From IMG/VR virus record IMGVR_UViG_3300027759_000001: a DNA stretch of 64,000 bases, one strand, 5' to 3'. The notes beneath the pieces were generated by a model, which saw only the letters and a list, made by a program, of their open reading frames with translations, had not been told where the DNA came from and did no database searches. The stretch comes from a virus (lineage: Duplodnaviria > Caudoviricetes). Shown piece after piece: positions 33,201 through 56,475 of this stretch. Both the position numbers and the translations under genes were made by a program. How positions within the stretch are numbered: the first letter of the stretch is position 1; each line of letters starts with the position of its first letter.

Positions 33201-33368
33201 AGTATTAACAATTCTTTTTCTAAAACTTTTATAGACCAATTAAATATATCTGGTGTGTATTTTTCATCTCAAGACCCAAATTGCGTTAATAATGAATTTA
33301 TTAATGGACCATTAGTTACACCAACTCCAACTCATCCATTAATAACAACAACTACAACAATAATATGA
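30225..33368 (+). CDS. large putative virion protein: LamG/ConA-like fold with Cys-rich insert, Thr linker and appended domain
   Basis: [20 protein letters not shown] LamG terminal strand; many CxxC; poly-Thr linkers. Confidence 0.7.
32434..33358 (+). repeat. 31-bp exact direct repeats (32434-32464, 33328-33358) flanking the C-terminal domain
   Basis: caactcatccattaataacaacaactacaac occurs at both ends, 894 nt apart. Confidence 0.9.
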
Positions 33369-33865
33369 GTAATTCAATAATTATAAAAAGTATAAATTAC
33401 GATGGTGAGGTTGCAAATATAATATTTAAACCTGACAATGATAATGTTGTAATTAATTTAGGTGATGTAACTTTACCTTGTACATTTAACCCTTCGTTGT
33501 TAATACCACCAAGAGAAATATATGGTACTTATACTATATTAGTATTAAACGATCAATGTCTTAATAGTGATTGTCCTTACATATTAAATGTTGTTAGACC
33601 AACTCCTACTCCAACTCCTACACCAACATTAACGTCAACTCCAACTAACACACCAACACCAACACCTACACCAACAGAAACAAAATATGTTTGTGTACCA
33701 ACACCAACAATCACGGTAACACAAACAATGACTTCAACACCAACGGCAACACCTCATCCGACGTGTACAAATCCGTGTGGTTGTCCATCACCAAGTAGAA
33801 CTCCTAAACCAACAAGGACACCAACACAAACTGCGACAAATGGGTATTGTCCAATACTACCGTAG
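33365..33865 (+). CDS. Pro-Thr-rich putative virion protein
   Basis: N-terminal beta domain followed by PTPTPT tract with Cys. Confidence 0.8.
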
Positions 33866-33886
33866 TTTGTTTTTTTATTATCAAAC

Positions 33887-33894
33887 TATTTATG
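33887..33894 (+). promoter_or_regulatory. late motif variant TATTTATG
   Basis: 4 nt upstream of ATG 33899. Confidence 0.45.
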
Positions 33895-33898
33895 GGAT

Positions 33899-34204
33899 AT
33901 GTTAATATTACAAATTGATGGTATAACAGGGGCTACCGCACCTTACAATTTATATGTCTGTGATGTCTATGGTAATCAATGTGCGGTTTTGGCAACAATA
34001 AATACTCCGATCCCACCATCAATAACATTAAACGTACCATCTCAATTTAATAATGTTCCAGCAATTGGTCTTAAAATCATTGATGTAAATGGTTGTGAAC
34101 AATTTGGAATCATCTATTGTGGAGATGTCAAGGGTAAAATATTCCAATCATCAGAGGTATTCTTATTCCAAGATGCAAATATTTATATTTTTGAGGACCA
34201 ATAA
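33899..34204 (+). CDS. small Cys-containing virion domain protein (paralog of N-terminus of 59337..61502)
   Basis: PYNLYVCD...C...KIID..GC motif shared. Confidence 0.75.
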   Translation: MLILQIDGITGATAPYNLYVCDVYGNQCAVLATINTPIPPSITLNVPSQFNNVPAIGLKIIDVNGCEQFGIIYCGDVKGKIFQSSEVFLFQDANIYIFEDQ

Positions 34205-34216
34205 TAACATTTTTAA

Positions 34217-34224
34217 TATTTATA
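34217..34224 (+). promoter_or_regulatory. putative late promoter TATTTATA
   Basis: 11 nt upstream of ATG 34236. Confidence 0.65.
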
Positions 34225-34235
34225 AGTAAAAGGGG

Positions 34236-37200
34236 ATGCCGAATTATCAAAGACTTACGGATAGAGTATTAGCACCAAGTGTGTCTATAAATGATATTTT
34301 ACATATTGTTATTACAGGTGACACATCTCAAAACCCTGCTGGTTCATCTTATAAAGCCACATTAGAACAAGTTGCTTCAGTTATTGGTAGTGTTGGTACA
34401 TCAGGAACAAACGGTACAGATGGTACTTCAGGAACAAGCGGAGTGAATGGAACTTCAGGAACTAACGGATCAAGCGGAGCGAATGGAACTTCAGGAACTA
34501 ACGGTACTTCAGGAACTTCAGGAACTTCAGGGACGAGCGGAACTAACGGAACAAATGGAACGAATGGTACTAACGGAACTAATGGTACTTCAGGAACAAG
34601 CGGAGCAAACGGAACTTCAGGGACTAATGGAACAAGCGGAGCAAACGGAACTTCAGGAACTAATGGTACTAGTGGAACAAACGGAACGTCAGGAACTAAC
34701 GGAACAGATGGGTCTTCAGGTACAAATGGTACAAACGGAACGGATGGTACAAACGGAACTAATGGTACAAACGGAACGGATGGTACAGACGGAACAAGTG
34801 GTACTAATGGGTCTTCAGGGACTAACGGAACAAGTGGTACTAATGGGTCTTCAGGGACTAACGGAACAAGTGGTATATCGGGAGTAAATGGAACATCAGG
34901 TACAAACGGAACTTCAGGAACTAATGGTACAGATGGAACTTCAGGAACAAACGGAACAGACGGAACTTCAGGTACAAATGGAACAGATGGTACTTCAGGA
35001 ACAAACGGGACAGACGGAACTAGCGGAACAAATGGTACGGACGGTACTAACGGAACTAATGGTACGGACGGAACTTCAGGAACTAATGGTACGGACGGAA
35101 CTAACGGAACTAATGGTACGGACGGAACTTCAGGAACAAACGGGACAGATGGTACTTCAGGTACAAATGGTACAGACGGAACTAATGGAACAGATGGTAC
35201 TTCAGGAACTAATGGTACAGACGGAACTTCAGGTACAAATGGAACGGACGGAACTTCAGGTACAAACGGAACTGATGGAAGTAGTGGAACAAACGGAACA
35301 GACGGTACTTCAGGAACAAACGGAACAGACGGTACTTCAGGAACTAACGGAACAGATGGAAGTAGTGGTACAAACGGAACAGACGGTACTTCAGGAACAA
35401 ACGGAACAGACGGTACTTCAGGAACTAACGGAACTGATGGTACTTCGGGAACAAATGGTACTAGTGGAACAAATGGTACGAATGGTACATCAGGTACAAA
35501 TGGTACTTCAGGAACTAATGGTACTAATGGTACTAATGGAACTAACGGAACATCAGGTACCAATGGTACAAGTGGAACTAACGGAACGTCAGGAACAAAT
35601 GGCACAAACGGGACTTCAGGAACTAACGGTACTAATGGTACATCAGGAACAAATGGCACATCGGGAACAAACGGAACATCAGGAACTAACGGAACTGATG
35701 GTACTTCAGGAACTAACGGAACTGATGGGACTTCAGGAACTAACGGAACAGATGGAAGTAGTGGTACAAATGGAACGGATGGAAGTAGTGGTACAAATGG
35801 AACGGATGGGACTTCAGGAACAAATGGTACAGACGGCACTTCAGGAACAAATGGTACTGACGGAACTTCAGGGACAAATGGAACCAACGGTACGGACGGA
35901 ACTAATGGAACAGATGGTACTAGCGGAACAAATGGTACAGATGGAACAAACGGTACGGATGGGACTAGTGGCACAAATGGAACTGATGGTACTTCAGGCA
36001 CAAACGGAACAGACGGCACTTCAGGGACAAATGGTACAAATGGAACTGATGGTACTTCAGGTACAAACGGAACAGACGGCACTTCAGGGACAAATGGTAC
36101 AAATGGAACTGATGGGTCAAGCGGTACAAATGGAACTGATGGATCAAGCGGTACTAATGGAACTGATGGATCAAGTGGTACTAACGGCACTTCAGGAACT
36201 GACGGTACGGATGGGACTAGTGGAACAAATGGTACGGATGGAACTAGTGGAACAAATGGAACTGATGGTTCAAGTGGGACTAATGGAACGGATGGAAGTA
36301 GCGGAACAAATGGTACTGATGGTTCAAGTGGGACTAATGGAACGGATGGAAGTAGCGGAACAAATGGTACTGATGGTACTAGCGGAACAAATGGTACTAA
36401 CGGAACAGATGGAACTAGCGGAACAAATGGTACAGACGGAACTAATGGAACTAATGGTACAGACGGAACTAATGGAACAGATGGAAGTTCTGGAACAAAT
36501 GGAACGGATGGTACTTCAGGCACTAATGGAACGGATGGTACTTCAGGGACAAACGGAACAGATGGTACTTCAGGTACTAATGGAACAGATGGTACTTCAG
36601 GTACTAACGGAACGGATGGTACTTCAGGGACAAACGGAACAGATGGTACTAATGGAACGGATGGTACTAGCGGAACAAACGGAACAGATGGGACTTCAGG
36701 GACTAACGGTACTAATGGAACAAATGGTACTGACGGATCAAGTGGTACTAACGGAACAGATGGTACTTCGGGGACAAATGGAACAGATGGTACTAACGGA
36801 ACGGATGGTACTTCAGGGACAAACGGAACAGATGGTACTTCGGGGACAAATGGAACAGATGGTACTTCAGGGACAAACGGAACAGATGGTACTTCGGGGA
36901 CATCACCCTTAATTTGTACTCCATTCTTATCGGGAGATTATTATTTTCAATCGGTAGGCTCAATATACAACGGACCTTCATATCCAAATATGGCATGGGG
37001 TCCTGGTCAAACATTAAGTGTATACGCACCTGAAGGTGTTATAGAATATATGTTAATTACAGGTTATACCGCATCAACAGGTGCGATATCTGCGGTTATC
37101 ACATATTGTTCAAATGTTAATTACAAAACAACATCGGGTGTTAATCTTTGTCTTGTAGGTGAACAAGGAACATCTGGCACAAATGGTACTTCAGGGACAA

Positions 37201-40200
37201 ACGGAACAGATGGTACTAATGGAACTTCAGGGACTAACGGTACTGATGGTACGAATGGTACAGATGGTACAGATGGTACAGATGGTACTAGTGGTACAAA
37301 CGGTACGGATGGAACTAATGGTACCGATGGTACTAGCGGTACTAATGGAACAGATGGTACTAATGGTACTAGCGGTACTAATGGAACAGACGGAACTTCA
37401 GGTACTAATGGAACGGATGGTAGTTCAGGTACTAATGGTACAGATGGTAGTTCAGGTACTAATGGGACAAACGGTACAGACGGTACTTCAGGAACTAACG
37501 GTACAGATGGAACGTCAGGAACAAATGGTACAGACGGTTCAAACGGAACGGATGGTACTAGCGGAACAAATGGTACAGATGGAACAAGTGGGATATCTGG
37601 AGTAAATGGTACAAGTGGAACAAATGGTACTAACGGAACATCAGGAACTAACGGAACGGATGGTACTTCAGGAACAAACGGTACGGACGGAACCTCAGGA
37701 ACTAATGGTACAGATGGAACTTCGGGGACTAATGGTACAGACGGTACTTCAGGTACTAATGGAACTGACGGATCTTCAGGGACTAATGGAACAGATGGAA
37801 CATCAGGTACAAACGGAACAAATGGTACAAATGGAACAGATGGTTCAAGCGGAACTAATGGTACGGACGGAACTAATGGTACAAATGGAACAGATGGTTC
37901 AAGCGGAACGAATGGTACTGACGGAACAAATGGTACTGACGGAACCTCAGGTACAAACGGTACGGATGGAACTTCGGGTACTAATGGTACAGATGGTACA
38001 AACGGAACAGATGGTTCAAGCGGAACTAATGGTACGGACGGAACTAATGGTACAGATGGTACTAGCGGTACAAATGGTACTGATGGATCAAACGGTACGG
38101 ATGGAACTTCAGGTACTAATGGAACTGACGGAACAAGTGGTACTAATGGAACTTCGGGGACTAATGGAACAAGTGGTATATCGGGGGTAAATGGAACTTC
38201 AGGAACAAATGGTACTTCAGGTACAAATGGTACCAACGGAACAAATGGTACTTCAGGGACAAATGGTACTAACGGGACTTCAGGTACAAATGGTTCTTCA
38301 GGAACTAGCGGTGTTAATGGTATTTCAGGTGGAGCTGTTTATTTCTTTAACGAATCAGTAACACAAACACCATACAAAGAATTTTCACCTATACCGACAT
38401 CAGGGTCACAACAAACAGTTACGGTTACTATTGCGAATGGTGTAACATCAACTATTCAATCATATTTAACACCCTCAACTTATCCGAATGTATCAACCAT
38501 ACCTGCGGGAATTTGGTCTTTCTTCTTACACGCGTATAAAGAAAATAATAACGCATCTTTTGATATTTTTTGTGAAGTTTATTCAAGAACAACAGGTGGA
38601 ACGGAAACTTTATTATTTTCAACAGACCCAGCACCTGTAACAACAAATTCACCAAATCCATCAATGGTATTATCTGATGGATTTCAAGGAGGATTTTCAA
38701 TCAATACAACAGATAGGATATTAGTTAAAGTTCGAGCTACAAATACCTCAAATCAATCACATACAATTACTTTCGTAACCGAAGGTACAACTCATTATTC
38801 ATATGGTCAAACTACGTTAGGTGTAATTAATGGAACTAGCGGTACGAATGGAACCTCAGGTACAAATGGTACGAGCGGAACTAATGGTACTAACGGAACA
38901 TCAGGTACCAACGGAACATCTGGTACTAATGGTACAAACGGAACTAGCGGTACGAATGGTACATCAGGTACGAATGGTACCAACGGAACTAGCGGTACGA
39001 ATGGGACTTCAGGTACGAATGGAACAAATGGTACTTCAGGGACAAATGGTACTAACGGGACTTCAGGAACAAATGGATCAAGTGGAACTAATGGAACTTC
39101 GGGCACTAATGGAACATCGGGAACAAACGGTACGAATGGAACATCAGGTACGAACGGAACAAATGGAACGTCAGGAACAAATGGTACTTCAGGTACAAAT
39201 GGTACCAACGGAACAAACGGTACTTCAGGAACTAATGGTACGGACGGTACTTCAGGAACGAATGGTACTGATGGAACAAATGGTACTAGTGGAACGAATG
39301 GTACTAGTGGAACGAACGGAACCAATGGAACAAACGGTACTAGCGGAACTAACGGTACAAACGGAACTAACGGTACAAACGGAACTAATGGTACAGACGG
39401 AACTAGCGGTACAAATGGAACTAATGGAACTAATGGAACAAACGGAACTTCGGGAACTAATGGAACATCAGGAACTAATGGAACTAATGGAACTAATGGA
39501 ACGTCGGGAACAAATGGTACGAATGGAACTAGCGGTACTAACGGTACATCGGGTACAAATGGAACTAACGGAACATCAGGTACAAATGGTACTAACGGAA
39601 CATCAGGTACTAACGGAACATCAGGTACAAATGGAACCAACGGAACGTCAGGAACAAATGGAACCAACGGTACTAGCGGAACTAACGGGACTAATGGAAC
39701 ATCAGGAACAAACGGAACATCAGGTACAAATGGTACTAGTGGTGTAAGTGGAGCGTCTGGTACTTCAGGAACAAACGGAACAAATGGTACAAACGGAACC
39801 TCAGGAACTAACGGAACAAATGGAACTTCAGGAACAAATGGCACAAACGGAACCTCAGGAACTAACGGAACAAATGGAACTTCAGGAACTAACGGAACTA
39901 ACGGTACAAATGGAACTTCAGGTACAAATGGAACTTCAGGTACGAATGGGACATCAGGAACCAATGGAACCAACGGTACAAACGGAACCTCAGGAACTAA
40001 CGGTACTAATGGATCAAGCGGTACCAACGGGACATCAGGTACGAATGGAACTAATGGGACATCAGGTACGAATGGAACTAATGGGACATCAGGTACGAAT
40101 GGAACTAATGGGACAAACGGAACGTCAGGGACTAATGGTACCAATGGAACTTCAGGTACTAATGGAACAAACGGAACATCAGGAACAAATGGTACCAACG

Positions 40201-41651
40201 GAACATCAGGAACTAACGGGACTAGCGGTACTAATGGAACTAGCGGAACAAATGGTACATCGGGAACAAATGGTACCAACGGTACATCAGGTACGAATGG
40301 TACCAATGGAACTTCAGGAACCAACGGGACAAATGGTACATCGGGGACAAATGGTACATCGGGAACAAATGGTACCAACGGTACATCAGGTACGAATGGA
40401 ACAAACGGTACAAATGGAACTTCAGGTACTAACGGAACCAATGGCACTAATGGTACAAGTGGAACAAATGGAACGAATGGTACTAATGGAACCTCAGGAA
40501 CAAATGGAACTAACGGGACTAATGGAACTTCAGGAACAAATGGAACCAATGGTACGAGCGGAACTAATGGGACGAATGGTACTTCAGGTACAAATGGTAC
40601 GAATGGTACTTCAGGTACAAATGGTACGAATGGAACAAATGGTTCAAGTGGTACTAACGGTACTAACGGTACTAACGGAACTAATGGAACGAACGGAACC
40701 TCAGGTACTAATGGAACATCGGGAACAAATGGAACAAATGGAACAAATGGAACATCAGGGACTAACGGAACGAATGGGACATCAGGAACCAATGGAACTT
40801 CTGGAACTAACGGTACGAATGGTACTAACGGAACCTCAGGTACCAACGGAACAAATGGTACTTCAGGTACGAACGGAACTAACGGAACATCAGGAACAAA
40901 CGGTACAAATGGTACAAATGGTACAAATGGTACAAACGGAACAAATGGTACTTCGGGAACAAACGGTACTTCAGGAACGAATGGTACTAACGGAACTTCA
41001 GGAACAAATGGTACCAACGGAACAAATGGTACCAACGGAACTAATGGAACCTCAGGGACTAATGGAACTAACGGAACAAATGGTACCAATGGAACCTCAG
41101 GTACTAACGGAACTAACGGAACTAACGGAACAAATGGTACGAGCGGAACTAATGGTACAAACGGAACATCAGGAACAAATGGAACATCAGGAACGAACGG
41201 TACAAGCGGATCATCACCTGTAGTACCAGGATTAGATAATGAAGTATTAACGTCAGACGGTTCGGGTAATATAGTTGCGGAAACTGATTTTACATATAAC
41301 GGTACTGATAATATATTAACACTAACAAGAAGTTACGATAAGGTTAATACTAAAACGGCAACAAATATTTCAACAACAACAACCATTGACTCATTTACAA
41401 CTAACTTTGGATGTTCGGCAATATTTGAATATTGTATAACAAGTACTAGTGGTCGTAAACGTATGGGTCAAGTATTTGCAACTTGGGACAATACAAGTGC
41501 GGTATTTACAGATATTTCATCCCCCGATTTAAATGCATCAACTGCTGCAGTAACTTGGAAAGTAAGTGTAGTATCGGGTAATGTTGAGTTAGTTGCTAAC
41601 ATTAGTGGTGCTACTTGGGACATATTAGTTGCAACAAGAATCATATTCTAA
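34236..41651 (+). CDS. giant Gly-X-Y (GTN/GTS/GTD) repeat fibre protein 1, 2471 aa
   Basis: Three in-register G-X-Y blocks separated by two globular domains; fibre-like terminal domains. Confidence 0.85.
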   Translation: MPNYQRLTDRVLAPSVSINDILHIVITGDTSQNPAGSSYKATLEQVASVIGSVGTSGTNGTDGTSGTSGVNGTSGTNGSSGANGTSGTNGTSGTSGTSGTSGTNGTNGTNGTNGTNGTSGTSGANGTSGTNGTSGANGTSGTNGTSGTNGTSGTNGTDGSSGTNGTNGTDGTNGTNGTNGTDGTDGTSGTNGSSGTNGTSGTNGSSGTNGTSGISGVNGTSGTNGTSGTNGTDGTSGTNGTDGTSGTNGTDGTSGTNGTDGTSGTNGTDGTNGTNGTDGTSGTNGTDGTNGTNGTDGTSGTNGTDGTSGTNGTDGTNGTDGTSGTNGTDGTSGTNGTDGTSGTNGTDGSSGTNGTDGTSGTNGTDGTSGTNGTDGSSGTNGTDGTSGTNGTDGTSGTNGTDGTSGTNGTSGTNGTNGTSGTNGTSGTNGTNGTNGTNGTSGTNGTSGTNGTSGTNGTNGTSGTNGTNGTSGTNGTSGTNGTSGTNGTDGTSGTNGTDGTSGTNGTDGSSGTNGTDGSSGTNGTDGTSGTNGTDGTSGTNGTDGTSGTNGTNGTDGTNGTDGTSGTNGTDGTNGTDGTSGTNGTDGTSGTNGTDGTSGTNGTNGTDGTSGTNGTDGTSGTNGTNGTDGSSGTNGTDGSSGTNGTDGSSGTNGTSGTDGTDGTSGTNGTDGTSGTNGTDGSSGTNGTDGSSGTNGTDGSSGTNGTDGSSGTNGTDGTSGTNGTNGTDGTSGTNGTDGTNGTNGTDGTNGTDGSSGTNGTDGTSGTNGTDGTSGTNGTDGTSGTNGTDGTSGTNGTDGTSGTNGTDGTNGTDGTSGTNGTDGTSGTNGTNGTNGTDGSSGTNGTDGTSGTNGTDGTNGTDGTSGTNGTDGTSGTNGTDGTSGTNGTDGTSGTSPLICTPFLSGDYYFQSVGSIYNGPSYPNMAWGPGQTLSVYAPEGVIEYMLITGYTASTGAISAVITYCSNVNYKTTSGVNLCLVGEQGTSGTNGTSGTNGTDGTNGTSGTNGTDGTNGTDGTDGTDGTSGTNGTDGTNGTDGTSGTNGTDGTNGTSGTNGTDGTSGTNGTDGSSGTNGTDGSSGTNGTNGTDGTSGTNGTDGTSGTNGTDGSNGTDGTSGTNGTDGTSGISGVNGTSGTNGTNGTSGTNGTDGTSGTNGTDGTSGTNGTDGTSGTNGTDGTSGTNGTDGSSGTNGTDGTSGTNGTNGTNGTDGSSGTNGTDGTNGTNGTDGSSGTNGTDGTNGTDGTSGTNGTDGTSGTNGTDGTNGTDGSSGTNGTDGTNGTDGTSGTNGTDGSNGTDGTSGTNGTDGTSGTNGTSGTNGTSGISGVNGTSGTNGTSGTNGTNGTNGTSGTNGTNGTSGTNGSSGTSGVNGISGGAVYFFNESVTQTPYKEFSPIPTSGSQQTVTVTIANGVTSTIQSYLTPSTYPNVSTIPAGIWSFFLHAYKENNNASFDIFCEVYSRTTGGTETLLFSTDPAPVTTNSPNPSMVLSDGFQGGFSINTTDRILVKVRATNTSNQSHTITFVTEGTTHYSYGQTTLGVINGTSGTNGTSGTNGTSGTNGTNGTSGTNGTSGTNGTNGTSGTNGTSGTNGTNGTSGTNGTSGTNGTNGTSGTNGTNGTSGTNGSSGTNGTSGTNGTSGTNGTNGTSGTNGTNGTSGTNGTSGTNGTNGTNGTSGTNGTDGTSGTNGTDGTNGTSGTNGTSGTNGTNGTNGTSGTNGTNGTNGTNGTNGTDGTSGTNGTNGTNGTNGTSGTNGTSGTNGTNGTNGTSGTNGTNGTSGTNGTSGTNGTNGTSGTNGTNGTSGTNGTSGTNGTNGTSGTNGTNGTSGTNGTNGTSGTNGTSGTNGTSGVSGASGTSGTNGTNGTNGTSGTNGTNGTSGTNGTNGTSGTNGTNGTSGTNGTNGTNGTSGTNGTSGTNGTSGTNGTNGTNGTSGTNGTNGSSGTNGTSGTNGTNGTSGTNGTNGTSGTNGTNGTNGTSGTNGTNGTSGTNGTNGTSGTNGTNGTSGTNGTSGTNGTSGTNGTSGTNGTNGTSGTNGTNGTSGTNGTNGTSGTNGTSGTNGTNGTSGTNGTNGTNGTSGTNGTNGTNGTSGTNGTNGTNGTSGTNGTNGTNGTSGTNGTNGTSGTNGTNGTSGTNGTNGTSGTNGTNGTNGSSGTNGTNGTNGTNGTNGTSGTNGTSGTNGTNGTNGTSGTNGTNGTSGTNGTSGTNGTNGTNGTSGTNGTNGTSGTNGTNGTSGTNGTNGTNGTNGTNGTNGTSGTNGTSGTNGTNGTSGTNGTNGTNGTNGTNGTSGTNGTNGTNGTNGTSGTNGTNGTNGTNGTSGTNGTNGTSGTNGTSGTNGTSGSSPVVPGLDNEVLTSDGSGNIVAETDFTYNGTDNILTLTRSYDKVNTKTATNISTTTTIDSFTTNFGCSAIFEYCITSTSGRKRMGQVFATWDNTSAVFTDISSPDLNASTAAVTWKVSVVSGNVELVANISGATWDILVATRIIF
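34386..36905 (+). repeat. G-X-Y block 1 (280 triplets)
   Basis: 2520 nt, Gly every third residue. Confidence 0.95.
37158..38336 (+). repeat. G-X-Y block 2 (131 triplets)
   Basis: 1179 nt. Confidence 0.95.
38832..41216 (+). repeat. G-X-Y block 3 (265 triplets)
   Basis: 2385 nt. Confidence 0.95.
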
Positions 41652-41704
41652 AATCAATCTTTCATTTAATTTTTCTTTTTAGATAATAAAGTTTACTTAA
41701 CTAA

Positions 41705-41712
41705 TATTTATT
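41705..41712 (+). promoter_or_regulatory. putative late promoter TATTTATT
   Basis: 55 nt upstream of ATG 41768. Confidence 0.5.
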
Positions 41713-41767
41713 TAATAACAAATAAATCAAAGGATTTTCTTTTGGATAGGGAAAAAAGAAAAAATAG

Positions 41768-44700
41768 ATGGCAAATGAATTCATAGCCCGTAATGGGGTC
41801 AAATCATTAGGTGGTGTTACATTTCCATATACTGGAGTGAGCACCACATACACAATTAATTCGGATAATTATCTAATTGATTGTACTAGCGGGACATTTA
41901 ATGTCACCCTTCCAACTTCTGCAGGTATTGCAGGACAAATCTTTGTAATTAAAAATAGTGGATCAGGAACAATAACTCTTGCAACAACAGGAGGTCAAAC
42001 TATAGATGGAAGTTCAACAAAAACATTAACACAATATGGATCAATAACCGTACAAAGTGACGGTTCAAATTGGGATATTGCGGGATCTGACGGAACGTCA
42101 GGAACTAACGGCACTAGCGGAACATCAGGAACAAATGGTACCAACGGTACTAATGGAACATCAGGTACAAATGGAACTAACGGTTCAAGTGGAACTAACG
42201 GTACAAATGGGACATCGGGAACCAATGGAACTAACGGTACAAACGGTACTTCAGGAACAAATGGTACAAATGGAACAAACGGAACGTCAGGTACAAACGG
42301 TACTAGCGGAACGAATGGTACTAACGGAACAAATGGTACGAGTGGAACTAACGGAACTAATGGTACATCAGGTACAAATGGTACTTCAGGAACTAATGGG
42401 ACTAACGGAACTTCAGGAACTAATGGTACTTCAGGAACTAACGGTACGAATGGAACTAATGGGACTTCAGGTACGAATGGTACTAATGGAACATCAGGGA
42501 CTAACGGAACAAATGGAACTTCAGGTACTAATGGAACTAATGGTACTAATGGAACTTCAGGTACTAATGGAACTAATGGTACTAATGGAACGTCGGGTAC
42601 TAATGGAACCAACGGAACATCGGGAACCAATGGGACTAACGGTACAAATGGAACATCAGGTACAAATGGAACATCAGGTACAAATGGAACTAACGGATCT
42701 TCAGGAACCAATGGAACTAATGGTACAAACGGAACTAGCGGTACGAATGGAACTTCAGGAACAAATGGAACATCAGGAACTAACGGCACAAATGGTACTA
42801 ATGGATCATCAGGAACTAATGGAACGTCAGGAACAAATGGAACCAACGGTACAAATGGTACTTCAGGAACTAACGGAACAAATGGTACAAATGGAACTTC
42901 AGGGACTAACGGAACTTCAGGAACTAATGGTACCAACGGAACATCGGGTACTAATGGAACTAATGGTACTAACGGAACAAATGGAACATCGGGTACTAAC
43001 GGGACTAATGGTACAAACGGAACTTCAGGAACTAACGGAACAAATGGTACGAGTGGGACCAATGGAACTAACGGTACTTCAGGAACTAACGGAACAAATG
43101 GTACGAGTGGGACCAATGGAACAAATGGTACTTCAGGAACTAATGGTACGAGCGGGACTAATGGAACAAATGGAACATCAGGTACTAACGGTACAAACGG
43201 TACTTCAGGAACGAATGGAACTTCAGGTACTAATGGAACTAATGGTACAAACGGAACATCAGGAACCAACGGTACAAATGGTACCAACGGAACTAGCGGA
43301 ACAAATGGAACTAACGGAACTAACGGAACATCAGGTACTAATGGAACTAATGGAACATCAGGAACAAATGGTACCAACGGAACTAGCGGAACAAATGGGT
43401 CTTCAGGTACGAATGGTACCAACGGAACTAGCGGTACAAATGGAACAAATGGAACTAACGGTACAAATGGCACGAGTGGGACCAATGGAACAAACGGTAC
43501 TTCAGGTACAAATGGAACTAATGGTACAAATGGAACAAATGGTACGAGCGGGACTAATGGAACTTCAGGTACAAACGGAACATCAGGAACGAATGGAACT
43601 AATGGAACTAATGGAACTTCAGGTACAAACGGAACCTCAGGAACGAATGGAACTAATGGAACTTCAGGTACTAACGGAACCTCAGGAACAAATGGTACGA
43701 ATGGATCATCAGGTACAAACGGAACGAATGGAACATCAGGAACAAATGGTACCAACGGAACTAGCGGAACAAACGGTACTTCAGGAACAAACGGTACTTC
43801 AGGAACGAATGGTACCAACGGAACTAGCGGTACTAATGGAACAAGCGGCACAAATGGAACGAATGGTACAAATGGAACCAACGGAACATCAGGTACCAAC
43901 GGAACTAATGGTACAAACGGAACTAGCGGACTTTCTGGTGTTGATGGTACTGATGGAACATCAGGAACAAACGGAACTAGCGGAACTAATGGTACCTCAG
44001 GAACAAGAGGAACTAGCGGAACAAATGGTACAAATGGTACCAACGGAACTAGCGGAACAAATGGTACCAACGGAACAAATGGTACTAATGGAACTTCGGG
44101 AACAAATGGCACAAATGGTACTTCAGGAACAAATGGTACTAACGGAACCTCAGGTACTAATGGGACTTCAGGAACTAATGGAACAAATGGCACATCAGGA
44201 ACAAATGGTACTAACGGAACTTCAGGTACAAATGGAACATCTGGGACAAACGGTACAAATGGTACTAACGGAACATCAGGAACGAATGGTACAAATGGAA
44301 CTTCAGGAACGAATGGTACAAACGGAACTAATGGAACAAATGGAACGAATGGAACCTCAGGTACGAATGGTACTTCAGGAACGAATGGAACTAACGGTAC
44401 TAATGGAACTAGCGGTACAAATGGTACGAACGGAACTAGCGGTACAAATGGTACTTCGGGAACAAATGGAACAAACGGAACTTCAGGTACAAATGGTACT
44501 AACGGAACTTCAGGTACAAATGGAACATCTGGGACAAACGGTACAAATGGTACTAACGGAACATCAGGAACAAATGGTACAAATGGAACTTCAGGAACGA
44601 ATGGTACAAACGGAACTAGCGGGACTAATGGAACTTCAGGAACGAATGGTACAAACGGAACTAATGGAACAAATGGAACGAATGGAACCTCAGGTACTAA

Positions 44701-47700
44701 CGGAACGAACGGAACATCAGGAACTAATGGAACCAATGGTACAAATGGAACAAATGGCTCAAGTGGTACAAACGGAACTTCAGGTACTAACGGAACATCG
44801 GGTACAAACGGAACTAACGGCACTTCAGGTACTAATGGAACTAGCGGTACTAACGGAACAAATGGAACTTCAGGAACAAATGGTACTAACGGAACGAATG
44901 GTACGAGCGGGACCAATGGTACATCAGGGACAAACGGAACGAATGGAACTAATGGCACTAGCGGTACAAATGGAACAAATGGTACTAACGGGACAAATGG
45001 TTCAAGTGGAACTAATGGAACTTCGGGCACTAACGGAACAAACGGTACTAGCGGAACGAATGGTACTAGCGGAACGAATGGAACAAATGGAACGTCAGGA
45101 ACTAATGGTACGAACGGAACAAATGGTACATCAGGTACTAATGGAACTAGCGGAACGAATGGTACAAATGGAACTAGCGGTACCAACGGGACTAATGGTA
45201 CAAACGGAACTTCAGGTACCAACGGAACTAATGGTACTAGCGGAACTAATGGTACTAACGGAACATCGGGAACGAATGGGACAAATGGAACTTCAGGTAC
45301 AAACGGAACATCAGGGACTAATGGAACAAATGGAACTAGCGGTACGAATGGAACCAATGGTACAAATGGTACTTCAGGAACTAATGGTACTAATGGAACG
45401 AACGGAACCAATGGTACGTCAGGGACAAATGGAACTTCAGGCACAAACGGGACTAACGGATCATCAGGGACCAATGGAACGAATGGTACAAGCGGTACTA
45501 ACGGAACTAGTGGGACAAACGGAACAAATGGTTCAAGTGGTACCAACGGTACTAATGGTACTAGCGGTACGAATGGAACTAGCGGTACAAACGGAACATC
45601 GGGAACGAATGGTACTAACGGTACAAATGGTACTTCAGGGACAAACGGAACAAATGGTACTAGTGGAACTAATGGAACCAACGGTACTAGCGGAACAAAC
45701 GGAACTAGCGGAACAAACGGAACCTCAGGAACAAATGGAACAAATGGTACTAGCGGAACTAATGGAACGTCAGGAACTAACGGAACAAATGGTTCAAGTG
45801 GAACCAACGGTACGAATGGTACTTCAGGTACAAATGGAACTAGCGGCACAAATGGAACTAACGGAACTAGCGGTACTAATGGTACTTCAGGAACAAATGG
45901 CACAAACGGAACTAATGGAACAAATGGTTCAAGTGGTACCAACGGTACAAATGGAACATCCGGAACTAATGGTACTTCAGGGACAAACGGAACAAACGGT
46001 ACGAATGGTACTAACGGAACAAGTGGAACTAACGGAACAAGTGGGACGAATGGTACTAATGGAACATCAGGAACCAACGGAACTTCTGGAACTAATGGAA
46101 CAAATGGTACTAGTGGAACTAACGGTACTAATGGTTCAAGTGGAACGAATGGTACTAATGGAACTTCAGGTACTAACGGTACTAATGGAACATCAGGAAC
46201 AAACGGAACTTCGGGAACCAATGGAACAAACGGTACATCAGGTACTAACGGAACAAGTGGGACGAATGGTACTAATGGAACTAGCGGAACGAATGGAACA
46301 TCAGGTACGAATGGTACAAACGGAACTTCGGGTACAAACGGAACATCGGGTACGAATGGAACGTCAGGAACGAACGGAACCAATGGCACATCGGGAACTA
46401 ATGGTACTAATGGTACATCAGGGACGAATGGAACAAATGGTACTAACGGAACTAGCGGAACAAACGGAACTAGCGGAACGAATGGTACGAACGGATCTTC
46501 AGGCACTAATGGTACATCGGGGACAAATGGAACCAACGGTACAAATGGAACTAATGGAACCAACGGGACTTCAGGCACAAATGGGACTAGCGGAACGAAT
46601 GGAACTAACGGAACGTCAGGTACAAATGGAACAAACGGAACTAATGGTACTAACGGTACAAGTGGTACAAATGGAACCTCAGGTACAAATGGAACAAACG
46701 GAACTAATGGTACTAACGGTACAAGTGGTACAAATGGGACTTCAGGTACAAACGGTACGAATGGTACTAACGGAACATCAGGTACAAACGGTACTAATGG
46801 TACTAGCGGTACGAATGGAACTAACGGCACATCAGGGACTAACGGAACTTCAGGTACGAATGGAACAAATGGTACGAGCGGGACCAATGGAACTAACGGA
46901 ACTTCAGGTACGAATGGAACATCAGGAACTAACGGAACTAGCGGAACGAATGGTACAAATGGAACTAGCGGAACAAATGGAACATCAGGTACAAATGGTA
47001 CCTCAGGAACAAGAGGAACTAGCGGAACAAATGGTACAAACGGAACCAATGGTACGAGCGGAACAAATGGAACTAATGGAACATCAGGAACTAACGGAAC
47101 ATCCGGTACGAATGGAACAAATGGTTCAAGCGGAACTAACGGAACTAACGGATCATCAGGTACAAACGGAACTTCGGGAACCAATGGTACAAACGGTACA
47201 TCAGGAACTAATGGAACTTCAGGTACAAATGGAACTAACGGTACTAATGGTACGTCAGGTACAAATGGAACCAATGGTACATCAGGTACTAACGGAACTT
47301 CAGGTACTAATGGAACTAATGGTACTAATGGAACAAACGGTACTTCAGGAACAAATGGAACGAATGGTACTAACGGAACTAGTGGAACAAATGGTACTAA
47401 CGGAACAAACGGTACGAATGGGACTTCAGGAACTAACGGCACAAGCGGGACAAATGGTACTAACGGTACAAGCGGGACAAATGGAACGTCAGGAACTAAT
47501 GGTACGAACGGAACAAATGGTACATCAGGTACTAATGGAACTAGCGGAACGAATGGTACAAATGGATCTTCAGGAACAAATGGAACAAATGGATCTTCAG
47601 GAACAAATGGAACAAATGGAACAAATGGATCTTCAGGAACAAATGGAACAAATGGATCTTCAGGTACGAACGGCACATCAGGAACTAATGGTACAAATGG

Positions 47701-48700
47701 TACTTCAGGAACAAATGGTACTTCAGGAACAAATGGTACGAGCGGGACCAATGGAACAAATGGAACCAATGGAACCAATGGAACATCAGGTACTAATGGC
47801 ACTTCAGGTACCAACGGTACAAATGGTACCAACGGAACTAGCGGCACAAATGGTACTAATGGATCATCAGGTACTAACGGAACTTCAGGGACAAATGGCA
47901 CTAACGGAACATCAGGAACCAACGGTACAAATGGAACTTCAGGTACAAATGGCACTAATGGTACTAGCGGAACAAACGGTACAAATGGATCATCAGGTAC
48001 GAATGGAACTTCAGGTGTTAGTGGAGCGTCAGGTACTTCAGGTACTAATGGTACAAATGGATCATCAGGAACTAACGGAACATCGGGTACTAATGGAACA
48101 GGATTTAATTCAATATCACCAACAACAGATAATAATGTGTTAACTGCTAATGGAACCGCAAATTCAGCGAACTCAGAACCAAACTTAACATTCAATGCTT
48201 CAACAAACTTATTAACAGTAACGGGTAATGAAACTGTTAGTGGTATTTTAACTAGTCAATCTTCGGGATCATTAGTTGCAAATGGTAAATGGTCTTTAAT
48301 GGGTAACCCTACAACTTTGTTAACCTCAAATAGTTATTATGGTGAAGTCGTAACATTTGGGGGGGCAGGTGCAACCACCCAATTTTATATGTATTATTGG
48401 TCTAGTGGAAGTACGTGGGAACTTACTGACGCCAACGCGGCGGCAACATCAAGGGGGTTAATATCAATGGCAATAGATACTAGTTTCAGTGGAGGGATGA
48501 TGTTAAGAGGATATGTATATAATTCAACATGGAACTGGACACCAGGAGCAACATTATATTTAAGTGCCTCTGGCGCTGCCGGGGTTATAACATCAACACA
48601 ACCTTCAGGTAGTGCGGATATTGTAAGAGTTGTTGGATATGCCATTAGTGCCGATTTAATTTACTTTAATCCTTCGCAAGATTGGATTGAGTTAGCATAA
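41768..48700 (+). CDS. giant Gly-X-Y (GTN/GTS) repeat fibre protein 2, 2310 aa
   Basis: N-terminal tail-fibre-type domain (VTLP...G...IKN...TIDG...SDGSNW), one uninterrupted G-X-Y block, globular C-terminus. Confidence 0.85.
42083..48094 (+). repeat. G-X-Y block (668 triplets)
   Basis: 6012 nt in register. Confidence 0.95.
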
Positions 48701-48708
48701 TACTTATA
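48701..48708 (+). promoter_or_regulatory. late motif variant TACTTATA
   Basis: Directly after the stop codon, 3 nt upstream of ATG 48712. Confidence 0.5.
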
Positions 48709-48711
48709 GTA

Positions 48712-49551
48712 ATGGCAATAATAACTAAATTAAATGACGTTTTATGTGTTAACATTTCAAAAATTGATAATGTTTTAAAAAGTAATGCGAAATTTTTTGA
48801 TGATAATACTTTTTGCCCAACACCAACACCTACACCAACAACTCCAGTTGGGACACCAACACCAACACCTACAAGAACATTAACTCCAACACCAACATTA
48901 ACAAGAACATTAACTCCAACACCAACAAATACACCTACATTAACTCAGACATTAACTCCAACACCAACAAATACACCTACATTAACTCAGACATTAACTC
49001 CAACTCCAACAAATACACCAACATTAACTCAGACATTAACTCCAACTCCAACAAATACACCAACATTAACAAGAACATTAACTCCAACTCCAACAAATAC
49101 ACCTACATTAACAAGAACATTAACACCAACGCCAACAAATACTCCTACATTAACAAGAACATTAACTCCAACACCAACAAATACTCCTACATTATCACAA
49201 ACATTAACTCCAACTCCAACAAATACGCCAACACCAACACAAAGATTAAGTTCAACGCCAACACCAACACCAACTCCAACTCTAACACCAACTACACCAT
49301 GTGGTAAAGATTGTTGTTATATAGAACTTTGTTATAGTACAATTGACTGTACGGACGCTTGTCAATGTAATCAAACTGTTAATGTATACCTATCTATTTG
49401 TAAATATACCGCATGTAGATTATCAAACGCATTTGGAATATTTGTAGATGACTCATGTACAACACCTGCGGCAGATGGTTACTATTCTAATACTGTTGAT
49501 TGTTATTATTGGGATGGGTCTTCCTCTTTAACATATCAAGGTCCTTGTTAA
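48712..49551 (+). CDS. Pro-Thr mucin-like putative virion protein with Cys-rich C-terminal domain
   Basis: Short N-terminal domain, ([12 protein letters not shown]) repeats, C-terminal domain with about 9 Cys. Confidence 0.85.
48901..49236 (+). repeat. 8 x 42-nt tandem repeat (T[RQ][12 protein letters not shown])
   Basis: Units start at 48901, 48943, 48985, 49027, 49069, 49111, 49153, 49195. Confidence 0.95.
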
Positions 49552-49586: not shown

Positions 49587-52500
49587 TTATTTTCTGTTAT
49601 CTATATAGAGGATTACTTCACTGTAGTACTCAATAAAATGGTCATTCCACAGATCCCATTTAATATTAACTCCATCCACAGAGAAAACTTGTATGTTATC
49701 AAACTGAGTTAAGATATTATCTCTAAAGTTTCTAAATTCTACTTTATGTTCTGGTGTTCTTAAATGCCATTCACCAACAATTTTTTTAACATTTTTTTTA
49801 ATGAAATCTAAATTTTCGGGTTTAAACATTTCGTATTCACCACCCTCACAATCTGTTTTAACAAAATCAATTCTATTTAATCCGTAAAGTTTAATAAACT
49901 TATCAAATGTAATAGACTCCATATGTGTTTCACCTCCAAATAATTGGTCGTGTTCAATCACACCATTAAAATTTGAAAGTCCTTTATTAATGTGAGTTAC
50001 AGGATGACCCAATGTATTTCTAATTAATGTTGTGAATTCACTTTCACTTGGTTCAATACAAAATACGTGTTTTGGTTTTTTATGTAGGATTGAATATGTA
50101 AAAGGACCAACACTTGATCCAATATCTAAAACGATATCCCCTTCTTCTACTTCAAAGAATTGTTCGTATAATCTCTGTTCAAATATTTCATTATACATTG
50201 CGTGTTTGTGATAATTACCATTATCGTCACCATTATTCATCCATCCCCAATCAAACTTAGGTAATGGATTACTATTGAGTAATTTATTGATTTCACCAAT
50301 AACGACTTCCGAAGTAATTTCTTTTGTACATTCAAACATCCGATCCGTATTCTTATGTAGTGGACACCAATTCCAATCACCGGCATCTAATCTATCTGAG
50401 TTAAAACATCCGTGACAAACACTTTCATTAATAACTCTATATGTATCTAATGTTGTTTCCGCCCATTTTTCACTAAATCCTGAAATCAAAACGACAGGTA
50501 ATTTACAAGCCCAAGCCAACCAAGATAATCCTGATCCGAGACCAATAAAGAACTCACATTCGGATAGGTCGTCAATTACTTCTTGTAAGTTACCTCCTTT
50601 AAAAATGGTTACACCTTTAGGGTAATGGTTATTCATGTATCCGTCACCTTCTTTAGAGTAGATCATACATTCATAACCTAAAGTATTAAGGTGGTCAACA
50701 ACTGCTTGCCATCCGTCAGGGTTGTTCCAATATTTTGATTGTGCGGTTGAGTGAAACCCAATACCAACTTTTTTCTTTTTAGGTGTGTTAGGTAATTTTA
50801 ATAGTGGTCTAACTTCTTCATAATCTAAACCTAAGATATCCGTTGCCGTTTTTTGTAATGGCATTTTCTTAAAATCAAATGGGTGTTTGTTATTATCGTA
50901 AACCCCTTCACTTGTATAATGCCAACCTAACCTATATTGTGCGTGTATATTAGTTACCAATTCACCAGGTTCAACAAACTCAATATCAGGGTATTGATCT
51001 TTAAATAAACTATTAAGGAAGGTTGATACTATAAGTTGGCAACCATGTTTTTTTCTAAATACCTCACAATAAGGAACCCAAGCCATTGTGTCACCTAATG
51101 ATTTTGATCCAAAAGAAATATATACTCTCTTATCTTTTAGATCTAATGTCTCATCATAAATTACTTCACCATTTTCTTCTACGGTTGTTCTCCATTTAAT
51201 AAAGTATTCTTTATTTAATTTAACCCAACTATTGATTGGTAATTCATTTTGATATGATATTTCATTTTTATCATCATAATATTTAATATTCAATTTGTTT
51301 TCTGTTGTCCCTTGTACTTCAAAATAAGGTTGGGTAACATAATGTCTAACAAAAGTATAATCTTTGGTTAATGGTTTGTTTTGGGTAATGTTAAGATTTG
51401 TAACTGCGTTATAAAAATTCAATAAATCTTCACCAAATGTATTATCGGGTAATATTTTATAAACATCTTTATTTTCAATAAGTTCAACCAATTGTTTTGA
51501 TATGGTTTTAACATCACCTTCTATTGGTGTTATATATCCATTAAACATACCCATGTATTGTGGTAAATCTCTTGTAAGGATTTTCATTCCATAATTGATA
51601 GATTCTCTAACAACCAACGGATTACATTCCCAAGTTGAGTTAAACATTAATACATCACAAGCCATCATGAATTTTTCAACGTCATTACGCTCACCCCATA
51701 CTTTTACGTTTGATGGTAAATTATTCATTATTGGACCCCAATAGTCTTCAAAGTTTGGAGCTTGGTTCCCAATAAAATGAAATTGGATGTCAGGGTTTGA
51801 TTCAATTAATTCTCTTGCAACCTCAACCCCTTCACCTTGATTTTTACCACTTGTCCATAACCCAACATTAAGTACGTGAGTTTTAAACATATCCAAACCA
51901 AGTTCTTCTCTTACTACAGTTTTTTTAATTAATGGGACTTGATTAAAATCACCATATATTTCATACTCCTCTAAAATTTTAGTTACCTTATTCTCAATTG
52001 GGTATAACGATAAAAACTTCATTGGTGTTTCATTTAAAAACGTTTCCTTTAAATGATAAGGGGTGACAAAACAATATGATTCAGGATTGAACTTTTTATG
52101 TGTTTGCGGGTTAAACCAAACATTATGACAAGTCTCAACCATTTTCCAAGTCCTATCATTTGAATAAAGTTGATTTAACAATGGTAGTGGGATTTTATTA
52201 AAACTTTCAAATCCTTCTAACATTTCTTCCGAATGAACAATATCAATATTATTGTTTTTAATAATATCAATTAACTCATATTTTCTTTTTGTGTCAGTTG
52301 TATCACCTAAACTAAAAAAATGACCTTCACCCAATAGATCAATTATTTTATCTCTTTGAACAACATATGTATTACTAAACTGAGAAAACTCAACCAAAAA
52401 TATTTCAATTTGGTCTTTGAATTTTTGAAGTTCTTGAATTCTTTTTAATACGAATTGAGGCATTCCACCTGTTGATAGGTGCGGTGTAAGGTACAATAAT

Positions 52501-55222: not shown

Positions 55223-55223
55223 C

Positions 55224-55231: not shown

Positions 55232-55234
55232 TAT

Positions 55235-56468: not shown

Positions 56469-56475
56469 TTAATGA

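Follow-up and report, generated by a model that had tools for sequence, protein, structure and literature searches.

What do two giant proline-free Gly-X-Y proteins, encoded side by side by an uncultured phage, build? The two genes (called fibre A and fibre B here) lie in a 64,000-nucleotide stretch of IMG/VR virus record IMGVR_UViG_3300027759_000001 (Duplodnaviria; Caudoviricetes), which was analyzed over its full length and is referred to as the window. Repeat composition, end domains, predicted structures, and related contigs suggest that they are probably trimeric collagen-like virion fibres of a ~290-kb freshwater T4-like jumbo phage, a virion location that we infer from sequence comparisons. 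Each chain would assemble as a homotrimer, with a neck motif and a C-terminal beta-domain aligning three chains in register. The Gly-X-Y region would then zip into a triple helix, one of ~574 nm in fibre B and a jointed series of 240, 112, and 227 nm in fibre A. Docking to the virion (tail, baseplate, or neck) would be the role of small, well-conserved N-terminal domains, and swappable C-terminal domains would form the distal, ligand-binding ends.

Translation of fibre A (ORF A, positions 34236–41651, plus strand) gives 2471 amino acids (aa), and translation of fibre B (ORF B, 41768–48700, plus strand) gives 2310 aa. Fibre A contains 676 in-frame Gly-X-Y triplets in three runs (aa 51–890, 975–1367, and 1533–2327) that are set apart by globular inserts of 84 and 165 aa. 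Fibre B contains 669 triplets in a single run without a break (aa 106–2112, 2,007 residues), or 668 if the closing GTG is left out. The triplet types are few: GTN (333), GTS (188), GTD (108), and GSS (28) in fibre A, and GTN (436), GTS (202), and GSS (22) in fibre B, so that G-[TS]-[NSD] accounts for 97.5% and 99% of triplets, respectively. Thr occupies the X position in 93%–96% of triplets in both fibres, and Y is Asn or Ser, with Asp (n = 108) added in fibre A only. The repeat regions have no Pro, no Lys, and zero to two Arg. Ser and Thr together make up 44% of repeat residues, and every Asn except one stands in an N-G-[ST] context. Past the repeats, both proteins carry the neck motif DN.VLT..G...E..(L/F)T(Y/F)(N/D), of which the fibre A copy is DNEVLTSDGSGNIVAETDFTYN, and the motif is invariant or nearly so among relatives. 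At 0.286 nm per residue, the contour length is 574 nm for fibre B and 580 nm (240 + 112 + 227) for fibre A.

A preliminary description of the locus, made from the sequence alone, had counted 676 and 668 triplets that were almost all G-[TS]-[NSD] and without Pro, had noted a related motif at the end of both repeats, and had proposed fibres of about 580–630 nm. Recounting reproduced the composition, the motif, and the triplet numbers, apart from the closing GTG of fibre B. The proposed length stands as a contour length for both chains, but fibre A is three helices joined by two folded domains and not one continuous helix. A run of 669 consecutive in-frame Gly codons is impossible by chance. The Gly-X-Y frame is fixed because the in-frame, non-repeat end domains have homologs elsewhere; the long ORFs in other frames and on the opposite strand are present because the repeat contains no stop codons. 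The similar triplet numbers of the two genes (676 and 669) were considered as a possible matched design, which was rejected since relatives show pairs of 346/566, 383/334, and 783/852 triplets. A heterotrimer of A and B chains was likewise rejected, as the fibre A inserts have no counterpart in fibre B.

The tandem pair recurs in independent freshwater IMG/VR contigs (L035, L036, L037/L038, and L039–L048). The A-type and B-type proteins measure at most 1234 aa (stop to stop) and 2396 aa in L035/L004, and the pair measures 1715 aa and 1311–1335 aa in L037/L038 and 2553 or 2556 aa and 3122 aa in L039–L048, which come from ten separate metagenome datasets. In L036, an A-type gene of at most 2702 aa is followed by a B-type gene cut by the contig end. 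Complete frames of relatives have 334–881 triplets per gene, and the family as a whole ranges from 334 to >1,000 triplets. N-terminal adaptors are kept among relatives (74%–78% identity for fibre A and 51%–89% for fibre B), and the ends are more variable. In L039, the N-terminal adaptor of fibre A is 74% identical and its C-terminal domain 44%, and fibre B ends in a different domain; in L036 and L037, a 308-aa N-terminal domain replaces the fibre A adaptor. The nearest Atlas clusters to insert 2 of fibre A are viral proteins bearing collagen repeats. By these sequence comparisons, the fibre family is modular, with N-termini retained and inserts and C-terminal domains exchanged.

Both fibres end in C-terminal beta-domains like those of known phage fibres and spikes. 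The last 106 aa of fibre A were modeled by AlphaFold2 with a predicted local distance difference test score (pLDDT) of 82–89. This model matched the C-terminal jelly-roll of T4 gp9 (Z 13.0, root-mean-square deviation 2.1 Å, 106 residues), the C-terminal domains of tailspikes and fibres from Acinetobacter and Klebsiella phages (Z 8.4–9.9), and, weakly, C1q-type domains (Z 4.8–5.1). There was no match to this domain in a collection of 50,697 phage records or in a PDB sequence search, and Pfam and PHROGs scans returned nothing on the fibre A inserts or on the genes ahead of the fibres. The last ~120 aa of fibre B are 41% identical to the C-terminus of gp047, an annotated tail fibre of Flavobacterium phage immuto whose gene sits in the tail module of that phage. 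The same domain recurs as the C-terminal module of many long, otherwise differing proteins from viral contigs and BFVD, some of them named tail-fibre-like or collagen repeat. The N-terminal domain of fibre B scored just under the cut-off against Pfam PF25692 (Phage_depo_C; E 7e-5), and this module is also found in fibre- or spike-region proteins of Arthrobacter, Halorubrum, and other phages. Because the N-termini are conserved and the C-termini swappable, which is the usual fibre pattern, docking is predicted at the N-terminus and ligand binding at the C-terminus.

Several results weigh against this view of the fibres. In fold, the fibre B C-terminal domain most resembles trimeric capsid decoration proteins (Z 8.5–6) and is also similar to the base of the phi29 head fibre gp8.5 (Z 4.7–5.0), so that C-terminal attachment to the head is conceivable. 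PHROG and Pfam searches with the end domains gave no homology to T4 gp34–37 or to any named tail-fibre family, and the conserved genes upstream of the fibres have no recognizable baseplate or neck identity. In a different arrangement, the proteins would be head or neck fibres: trimers anchored to the capsid or neck by the fibre B C-terminal domain, with reversed polarity, forming outward glycosylated hair. Its models are the phi29 head fibres, the A-1(L) neck fibres, and the phiCbK head filament. When 48,161 PDB chains were searched with the fibre B domain, most of the best rows were phage decoration or cement proteins (Adjutor, Z 8.5; HFTV1, 8.3; Pam3, 7.7; and those of Patience, BB1, FCWL1, XM1, Sf11, E217, and TW1), and gp8.5 and herpesvirus triplex proteins were found in the same search. 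A head or neck location agrees with the capsid genes in the same window and with a weak match in sequence (E 0.084) to the bead domain of gp82, the neck fibre of A-1(L) (PMC10966104). However, Z values of 6–8.5 fall in a range that is common for unrelated folds by the tool's own warning, and this type of domain ends many long proteins with attachment-like N-termini, such as the tail-module protein gp047 of immuto. Relatives swap the C-terminal and keep the N-terminal domains, as is usual for distal receptor-binding ends, and the fibre A end resembles tailspikes and gp9, not decoration proteins. Head or neck fibres are therefore unlikely. N-terminal attachment to the tail, baseplate, or neck is considerably more likely than attachment to the head through the fibre B C-terminal domain, judging from the sequences.

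The preliminary description had called the repeats collagen-like, and this assignment holds. Pieces of 600 aa from both fibres match Pfam PF01391 (Collagen) with 296 bits (cut-off 27.2, E 3e-90), and fibre B keeps a strict register through 2,007 residues. An ortholog of fibre B in L002/L003, with a 58% identical end domain, has Pro-containing GAQ, GAT, GGP, and GPQ repeats at the same place; since these are ordinary collagen, the Pro-free repeat would fill the structural slot of a normal collagen-like shaft. Pro-containing repeats (GAQ, GAT, GGP, GPQ, and GPT) were identified in fibre B orthologs of four contigs (L002:2-910, L003:1-699, L091, and L130), and these orthologs keep the same C-terminal knob, the same (TP)n neighbor, and the same glycosyltransferase, both described below. 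A homotrimer model of fibre B aa 2062–2310 (the last 17 triplets and the end domain), built from a 14-row alignment, gave an interaction score (ipSAE) of 0.94 in all three runs, and the highest-scoring of three controls reached 0.00. Partner pLDDT did not fall below 83, the runs shared at least 68% of contacts, and confident contacts spanned the Gly-X-Y part, the neck, and the knob. In calibration, the mark for this score was reached by 20 of 30 true homo-pairs and one of 23 single chains. Phage fibre trimers are abundant among solved structures, so that resemblance to these may account for some of the score. The model thus supports trimerization of fibre B but does not demonstrate it.

How such a helix would be held together is less obvious, since the usual stabilizers are missing: neither fibre has Pro or Lys-Asp/Glu pairs (KGE/KGD) in its repeats. 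Bacterial collagen-like proteins have Pro as the commonest residue in X (19%–31%) and Thr as the commonest in Y (PMC8968730), unlike the fibres, which lack Pro and carry Thr in X. KGD and KGE salt-bridge triplets occur unusually often in collagen-like proteins of all domains and of viruses, with KGD making up 13% of viral collagen triplets, and these triplets have been proposed as a general folding aid for very long helices (PMC11923368); the fibres have none. The peptide (Gly-Pro-Thr)10 is a random coil unless its Thr is galactosylated (PMC11923368). Such stabilizers are typical of the family without belonging to its Pfam definition, so that membership in Pfam Collagen stands, and the stabilizing mechanism must differ from the usual one. 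With no Pro, no Lys, and Thr in X, the shafts would be held by polar hydration networks, low habitat temperature, sheer length, or glycosylation, or would form no triple helix. Counting against a helix, Asn and Ser do poorly at forming helices when they occupy Y, according to host-guest data. In favor of one, the strict register has persisted despite wide change in X and Y and at synonymous sites, also in relatives with GSS and GTS repeats, which points to a structure in which every third residue has to be Gly.

It is improbable that the repeats form no triple helix and are instead a disordered, glycosylated, mucin-like brush or a bundle of polyglycine II (PGII) or polyproline II (PPII) strands, as in the snow-flea antifreeze protein and the S16 gp38 adhesin, with a length far below 0.6 µm. 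This would agree with the absence of Pro, Lys, and the known helix stabilizers from the repeats (PMC11923368, PMC8968730). It would also agree with the low pLDDT (~30) of the Gly-X-Y part in the AlphaFold2 monomer, as expected of a lone chain, and with the phage's several other (TP)n and (TX)n proteins, which are clearly of mucin type. However, Gly at every third residue is not required in a disordered or mucin-like linker, and yet the register holds without interruption through 669 triplets here and 334 to >1,000 in relatives. The PGII bundles of the snow-flea protein and the S16 gp38 tip consist of Gly-X-X strands of ~10 residues that are split by turns. Turns would be required every 10–12 residues, and no interruption occurs in the 2,007 residues of fibre B or within the three runs of fibre A; the folded PPII bundle that the preliminary description had offered as an alternative is accordingly disfavored, with no break or turn signal in 669 triplets. 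The classical Pro-containing repeats at the same position in the L002/L003 ortholog, and the confident contact among three Gly-X-Y segments in the trimer model, also favor the collagen-like trimer. Because collagen helices are flexible, such a trimer would have a mean end-to-end reach well below its contour length, ~130–260 nm for persistence lengths of 15–65 nm by a rough worm-like-chain estimate.

Misassembly within repeats could have inflated the genes or made them chimeric, and the lengths in the window were examined with this in mind. The repeat DNA is degenerate: all four codons of Thr and of Gly are used, as are TCN and AGY codons for Ser, each run has 54–74 distinct in-frame 9-mers, and units match at only 60%–79% in Tandem Repeats Finder. 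This pattern is a signature of old repeats under protein-level selection, unlike recent slippage. Within the 14.5 kb, the longest exact repeat is 90 nt and all 99-mers are unique, so that reads of 150 nt assembled with a large k can resolve the region. At shorter word lengths, 10% of 31-mer and 36% of 21-mer positions are non-unique. Short-read Logan contigs (k = 31) shatter inside the repeats with many alternative joints, which reflect repeat ambiguity and related strains; none spans either gene, and these contigs neither confirm nor refute the length, which counts against taking the triplet numbers as final. The unique parts of the fibre genes are covered without differences in three freshwater runs.

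That real genes were lengthened or fused by assembly is very unlikely in light of the relatives, even though many related contigs end within repeats. Over 6 kb the frame meets no stop and keeps its register between homologous end domains, complete frames with hundreds of triplets occur in other contigs, and the ten datasets of L039–L048 agree on the lengths of their pair to within one triplet. One contig (L007:2-10582) has a single open frame of >3527 aa with 1,056 triplets that combines an A-type insert (98.8% identical to insert 2 of fibre A) with a B-type knob (50% identical). Its repeats flanking the insert are ~75% identical to those of the window, which indicates a different phage, and either natural A/B mosaicism or a chimeric contig would explain the frame. 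Giant homologs (1,270–4,325 aa) were sought with both C-terminal regions and none was found, a result that is uninformative on rarity because IMG/VR DNA encodes such proteins. An assembly artefact, named at the outset as what would overturn the finding, is thus unlikely for the family given the unique 99-mers and the recurrence in independent contigs. The fibre family and its order of size are real, and the exact triplet counts in this window are provisional.

The fibres belong to a seven-gene plus-strand block (30225–49551) that is syntenic in relatives and includes, in order, proteins of 1047, 166, and 101 aa, fibre A, fibre B, and a 279-aa (TP)n protein (Table 1). The 279-aa protein always lies between fibre B and a glycosyltransferase. 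No Pfam, PHROG, or PDB sequence match was found for the 1047-aa protein, in which the peptide HPLITTTTT occurs in two tandem copies before the last domain and once more at the protein end. A T4 late promoter sequence, TATAAATA, is located at 30186, 32 nt ahead of the ATG of the 1047-aa gene, and is suggestive only, as such sites are not enriched in the window (16 compared to 12.5 expected). Apart from the fibres, four proteins of the window, the 1047-aa and 279-aa proteins included (within 30225–33865, 48712–49551, and 59337–61502) have long mucin-type (Thr-Pro)n, (Thr-X)n, or TTTTT linkers.

Table 1. Positions of the fibre modules and of neighboring genes in the window, with conservation or supporting evidence
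Feature	Position	Strand	Conservation or evidence
Cys-rich protein of 1047 aa that opens the block, with (TP)n and TTTTT linkers	30225..33368	+	64-69% identical in L035, L049, upstream of fibres
166-aa protein, Pro/Thr-rich mucin-like C-terminal half	33365..33865	+	Conserved in L035, L039, L049
101-aa protein directly upstream of fibre A	33899..34204	+	54-62% identical in L035, L039, same position
Fibre A N-terminal 50-aa adaptor, putative virion-attachment end	34236..34385	+	74-78% identical in L035, L039
Fibre A collagen-like run 1, 280 triplets, ~240 nm	34386..36905	+	Triplet count, Pfam Collagen
Fibre A globular insert 1, 84 aa	36906..37157	+	No Pfam match
Fibre A collagen-like run 2, 131 triplets, ~112 nm	37158..38336	+	Triplet count
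Fibre A globular insert 2, 165 aa	38337..38831	+	98.8% identical to insert in L007 fibre
Fibre A collagen-like run 3, 265 triplets, ~227 nm	38832..41216	+	Triplet count
Fibre A neck motif and C-terminal jelly-roll domain, 144 aa + stop	41217..41651	+	AlphaFold2 model, structure match
Fibre B N-terminal beta-sandwich domain, 105 aa	41768..42082	+	Sub-threshold PF25692; 51-89% identical in relatives
Fibre B uninterrupted collagen-like run, 669 triplets, ~574 nm	42083..48103	+	Triplet count, Pfam Collagen
Fibre B neck motif and C-terminal knob, 198 aa + stop	48104..48700	+	Homology, trimer model, fold match
279-aa protein: short N-terminal part, ~190 aa of (T-P/L-T) repeats, Cys-rich C-terminal domain	48712..49551	+	Conserved in L035, L037, L007, L002; phrog_15511
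1219-aa four-domain enzyme, convergent with the fibre block	49587..53246	-	Pfam, PDB, NCBIfam
GT60-type polypeptide N-acetylglucosamine (GlcNAc)-transferase-like protein, possible second protein glycosyltransferase	61565..62812	+	Pfam PF11397, E 3.4e-72

The 1219-aa enzyme combines a glycosyltransferase (GT) family 2 domain (aa 1–130), a GT4 domain (446–597), a TibC/Aah-type protein O-heptosyltransferase (655–991), and an FkbM methyltransferase (1039–1176). Its TibC part matches the TibC structure (PDB 4RAP) with E 2e-71 and the NCBIfam equivalog TIGR04414 with 288.7 bits (cut-off 200), and all four iron-finger Cys (CxxC...WCP...FEC) align with TibC in a match of E 2.6e-72. TibC and Aah are cytoplasmic enzymes that add heptose to Ser of repetitive adhesins. 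The enzyme adjoins the fibres in every relative with enough flank. IMG/VR has relatives of its TibC-type domain in at least 317 viral contigs, with lengths up to 373 kb. In 50 of 80 viral loci examined there is an ORF with 30 or more Gly-X-Y triplets, and almost all of these ORFs carry Pro-free GT[NS] or GSS repeats; many of the remaining 30 loci stop at a contig edge. The GT60-like gene lies 13 kb from the fibres and is the first of three or more sugar-enzyme genes with the same orientation at the window end. In L049, a copy of it with 76% identity is located ~1 kb from the only collagen-like fibre gene. At least 12 other sugar-enzyme genes occur in the window (GT2, GT11, GT9, GT92, DegT aminotransferase, NeuD/PglD acetyltransferase, methyltransferases, and a nucleotidyltransferase).

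Taken with the mucin-like proteins, this set of enzymes makes it very probable from gene content that the phage glycosylates proteins. Whether the fibre shafts are among the substrates is a narrower question, and O-glycosylation of the shafts stands at about an even chance on the sequence evidence. The stability of the helix would probably derive from the dense surface of Thr, Ser, and Asn hydroxyl and amide groups and, most likely, also from cytoplasmic O-glycosylation of Ser and Thr by phage enzymes, for which the TibC-type fusion and the GT60-like protein are candidates. The suggestion that so Thr- and Asn-rich a helix would be marginal unless modified, made when the locus was first described, gains support from the conserved TibC/Aah-type neighbor, the GT60-like gene, and repeats without Pro or Lys-Asp/Glu pairs.

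Other observations speak against the fibres as substrates. TibC and Aah act on Ser in the strand-loop-strand motifs of autotransporters, not on collagen-like chains, and no autotransporter is encoded near the 1219-aa enzyme. The enzyme also adjoins the L002/L003 ortholog, of which the visible repeats are poor in Ser and Thr (the contig starts inside the gene). As it always neighbors the (TP)n protein, that protein may be the substrate and not the fibres. Two near-complete relatives have no GmhA or HldE kinase, and any heptose donor must then come from the host; in the window, a cytidylyl- or adenylyltransferase (25470–25928) scores equally for TagD and RfaE domain II. N-glycosylation of the N-G-[ST] sequons was given low weight, with no GT41 (HMW1C-type) enzyme in the two near-complete relatives; an oligosaccharyltransferase was not searched for. 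The sequon is probably a by-product of the repeat, because no GT41 was found and Ser largely replaces Asn in GSS and GTS fibres. A further-reaching reading, that Pro-free and salt-bridge-free (Gly-Thr-Asn/Ser)n helices of >0.5 µm that depend on heptose and/or GlcNAc O-glycosylation by phage enzymes are a new structural class of collagen, is put forward only tentatively.

That the two are non-virion proteins made in infection, such as a coat of the infected cell or an extracellular matrix, beside glycosyltransferases that remodel host surface glycans (the usual assumption for marine myophages), would fit the reading of glycosyltransferases in pelagimyophage tail-fibre hypervariable regions as host O-antigen modifiers (PMC7029224) and the lack of a signal tying the fibres physically to the virion, but is highly improbable given end-domain folds and relatives typical of phage fibres and spikes, a block shared with other structural-type proteins near capsid genes, N-termini without a signal peptide evident by eye, and TibC-type enzymes that glycosylate proteins and not lipid-linked glycans.

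The virion fibres proposed here share features with several known systems. As in PF01391 collagens (Streptococcus Scl1/2, EPclA-type proteins of E. coli O157 prophages, and phage tail fibres), the Gly-X-Y pattern is strict and passes Pfam, the non-collagenous ends are of a trimerizing kind, the context is that of phage fibres, and a fibre ortholog has Pro-containing repeats. Unlike those collagens, the fibres are reduced to three or four triplet types. At 669–676 triplets, they are about twice as long as a fibrillar collagen chain and within the range of prokaryotic collagen-like chains, which reach up to 2,000 triplets (PMC11923368). BclA of the Bacillus exosporium nap and of C. difficile is also a Thr-rich collagen-like filament with a C-terminal beta-sandwich trimer knob and an N-terminal anchor. 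Its filament length is set by repeat length polymorphism, and the fibre family is length-variable as well. The Thr residues of BclA are O-glycosylated by dedicated cytoplasmic glycosyltransferases that are encoded nearby (PMC8968730, PMC7157674). BclA differs in having mostly GPT repeats (Pro in X, Thr in Y), 20–90 triplets compared to ~670, and a location on the spore surface and not on a virus, and the C1q likeness of the fibre A C-terminal domain, which would be the BclA-type feature, is weak (Z ~5).

As in T4 long tail fibres, gp9, and podophage tailspikes, the fibres are predicted to be trimeric with N-terminal attachment and a C-terminal distal domain, and the jelly-roll of fibre A (Z 13) is a feature of gp9 and tailspikes. 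The T4 long tail fibre is 145 nm long. The present fibres differ from it in a collagen-type and not a beta-structured shaft, ~4 times the length, and no sequence homology to gp34–37. Like the TibC/Aah systems, the locus encodes an enzyme beside a highly repetitive, Ser/Thr-rich presumed substrate; unlike them, the enzyme is phage-encoded and fused to GT2, GT4, and FkbM domains, and there is no autotransporter substrate. Mimivirus has collagen-like fibril proteins together with a virus-encoded hydroxylase and glycosyltransferase. It resembles the present phage in that a virus encodes collagen-like surface fibres and its own large sugar machinery (mentioned in PMC8968730). Mimivirus collagens differ in containing Pro and Lys and in hydroxylysine modification, they belong to a eukaryotic giant virus, and no sequence relationship to the fibres was shown. 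In mycobacteriophages, according to the account of Freeman et al. 2023 cited in PMC12619734, phage glycosyltransferases O-glycosylate the phage's own Ser/Thr-rich structural proteins. The targets in that account are short C-terminal tails of capsid and tail-tube subunits, whereas the candidate targets here are 2,000-residue shafts and (TP)n proteins.

Phage fibres with collagen-like repeats have been recorded before, as have glycosyltransferases encoded in the fibre regions of myophages (PMC7029224, PMC3368898). We searched the literature for jumbo-phage collagen fibres and proline-free collagen and found nothing specific. There was no description of a Pro-free, charge-pair-free G-T-[NSD] composition at this length or of such a tandem pair conserved across a jumbo-phage lineage, and no paper on phage TibC-type enzymes or on a fixed pairing of Pro-free fibres with a TibC-type fusion was identified. 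Salt bridges have been argued to be a universal "folding code" of collagen (PMC11923368), and a natural 2,000-residue Gly-X-Y chain without imino acids or Lys-Asp/Glu pairs is a direct test of triple-helix folding rules. The fibres would add an uncultured clade of freshwater jumbo phages with fibres ~4 times as long as T4 long tail fibres. If the shafts are glycosylated, a TibC-type protein heptosyltransferase would join the enzymes of virion self-glycosylation, which has so far been shown in mycobacteriophages; its family is otherwise known from bacterial autotransporter adhesins and yet is present in at least 317 viral contigs. Some caution is also indicated for glycosyltransferases in myophage fibre regions, which are usually read as host O-antigen modifiers and may target the phage's own proteins. 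Long, flexible, hydrophilic fibres might, as a speculation, enlarge the capture radius for sparse freshwater hosts. If the tentative reading as a new class of collagen were true, a freshwater jumbo-phage lineage would carry glyco-collagen "fishing lines" several times the length of the virion. In biomaterials, there is demand for Pro-free, hydroxylase-independent collagen-like sequences that can be produced in bacteria.

Assignment of the window to a T4-like jumbo phage follows from its capsid and protease genes and from a ~292-kb relative. The window has ~30% G+C outside the repeats. Its genes include those for a major capsid protein of gp23 type (E 1.6e-73), an S77 prohead protease, PhoH, and dUTPase, and there is a weak match to a late sigma factor. 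The nearest capsid proteins (41%–45% identity) come from an uncultured phage of 484 kb, Microcystis phage Mel-JY01, and Flavobacterium phage immuto. A relative with a 95% identical glycosyltransferase domain is a 291,867-bp contig that is 99% complete by CheckV. The stretch is present in freshwater or lake metagenome runs of ~20 studies. In a lake-water metatranscriptome (run X22), at least eight small contigs are identical to parts of both fibre genes (35913–47566), a weak hint of transcription that could also be DNA carry-over. The major capsid protein (2763–4592, plus strand) has 609 aa, far more than T4 gp23. Its best Pfam Gp23 stretch is aa 343–594, tblastn matches to it fall in two pieces with ~55% coverage, and it probably contains a large extra domain. 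A PDB search with the large minus-strand ORFs at 8504–10057 and 10271–12178 gave no match.

A co-oriented cluster of sugar genes on the minus strand (13322–27204) encodes three GT2-type enzymes, a GT11-like and a GT1/4-like enzyme, an O-methyltransferase, a PhyH dioxygenase, the TagD/RfaE-like nucleotidyltransferase, a fragment-sized DegT aminotransferase ORF (214 aa), and a NeuD/PglD acetyltransferase that scores above the NCBIfam cut-off. Genes for PhoH, dUTPase, and an exonuclease are interspersed within it. The GT60-like gene is followed by GT92/GT2-like and FkbM genes (61565–64000, plus strand). Between the fibre block and the window end, three neighboring plus-strand genes (54251–59181) encode proteins with lectin-type heads, namely Laminin_G_3 (E 1e-23), weak SPRY and fibrinogen-C matches, and a legume-lectin-like domain. 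Among them lies a GT9 gene (55542–56468) whose score to the Aah/TibC model was its best, though weak.

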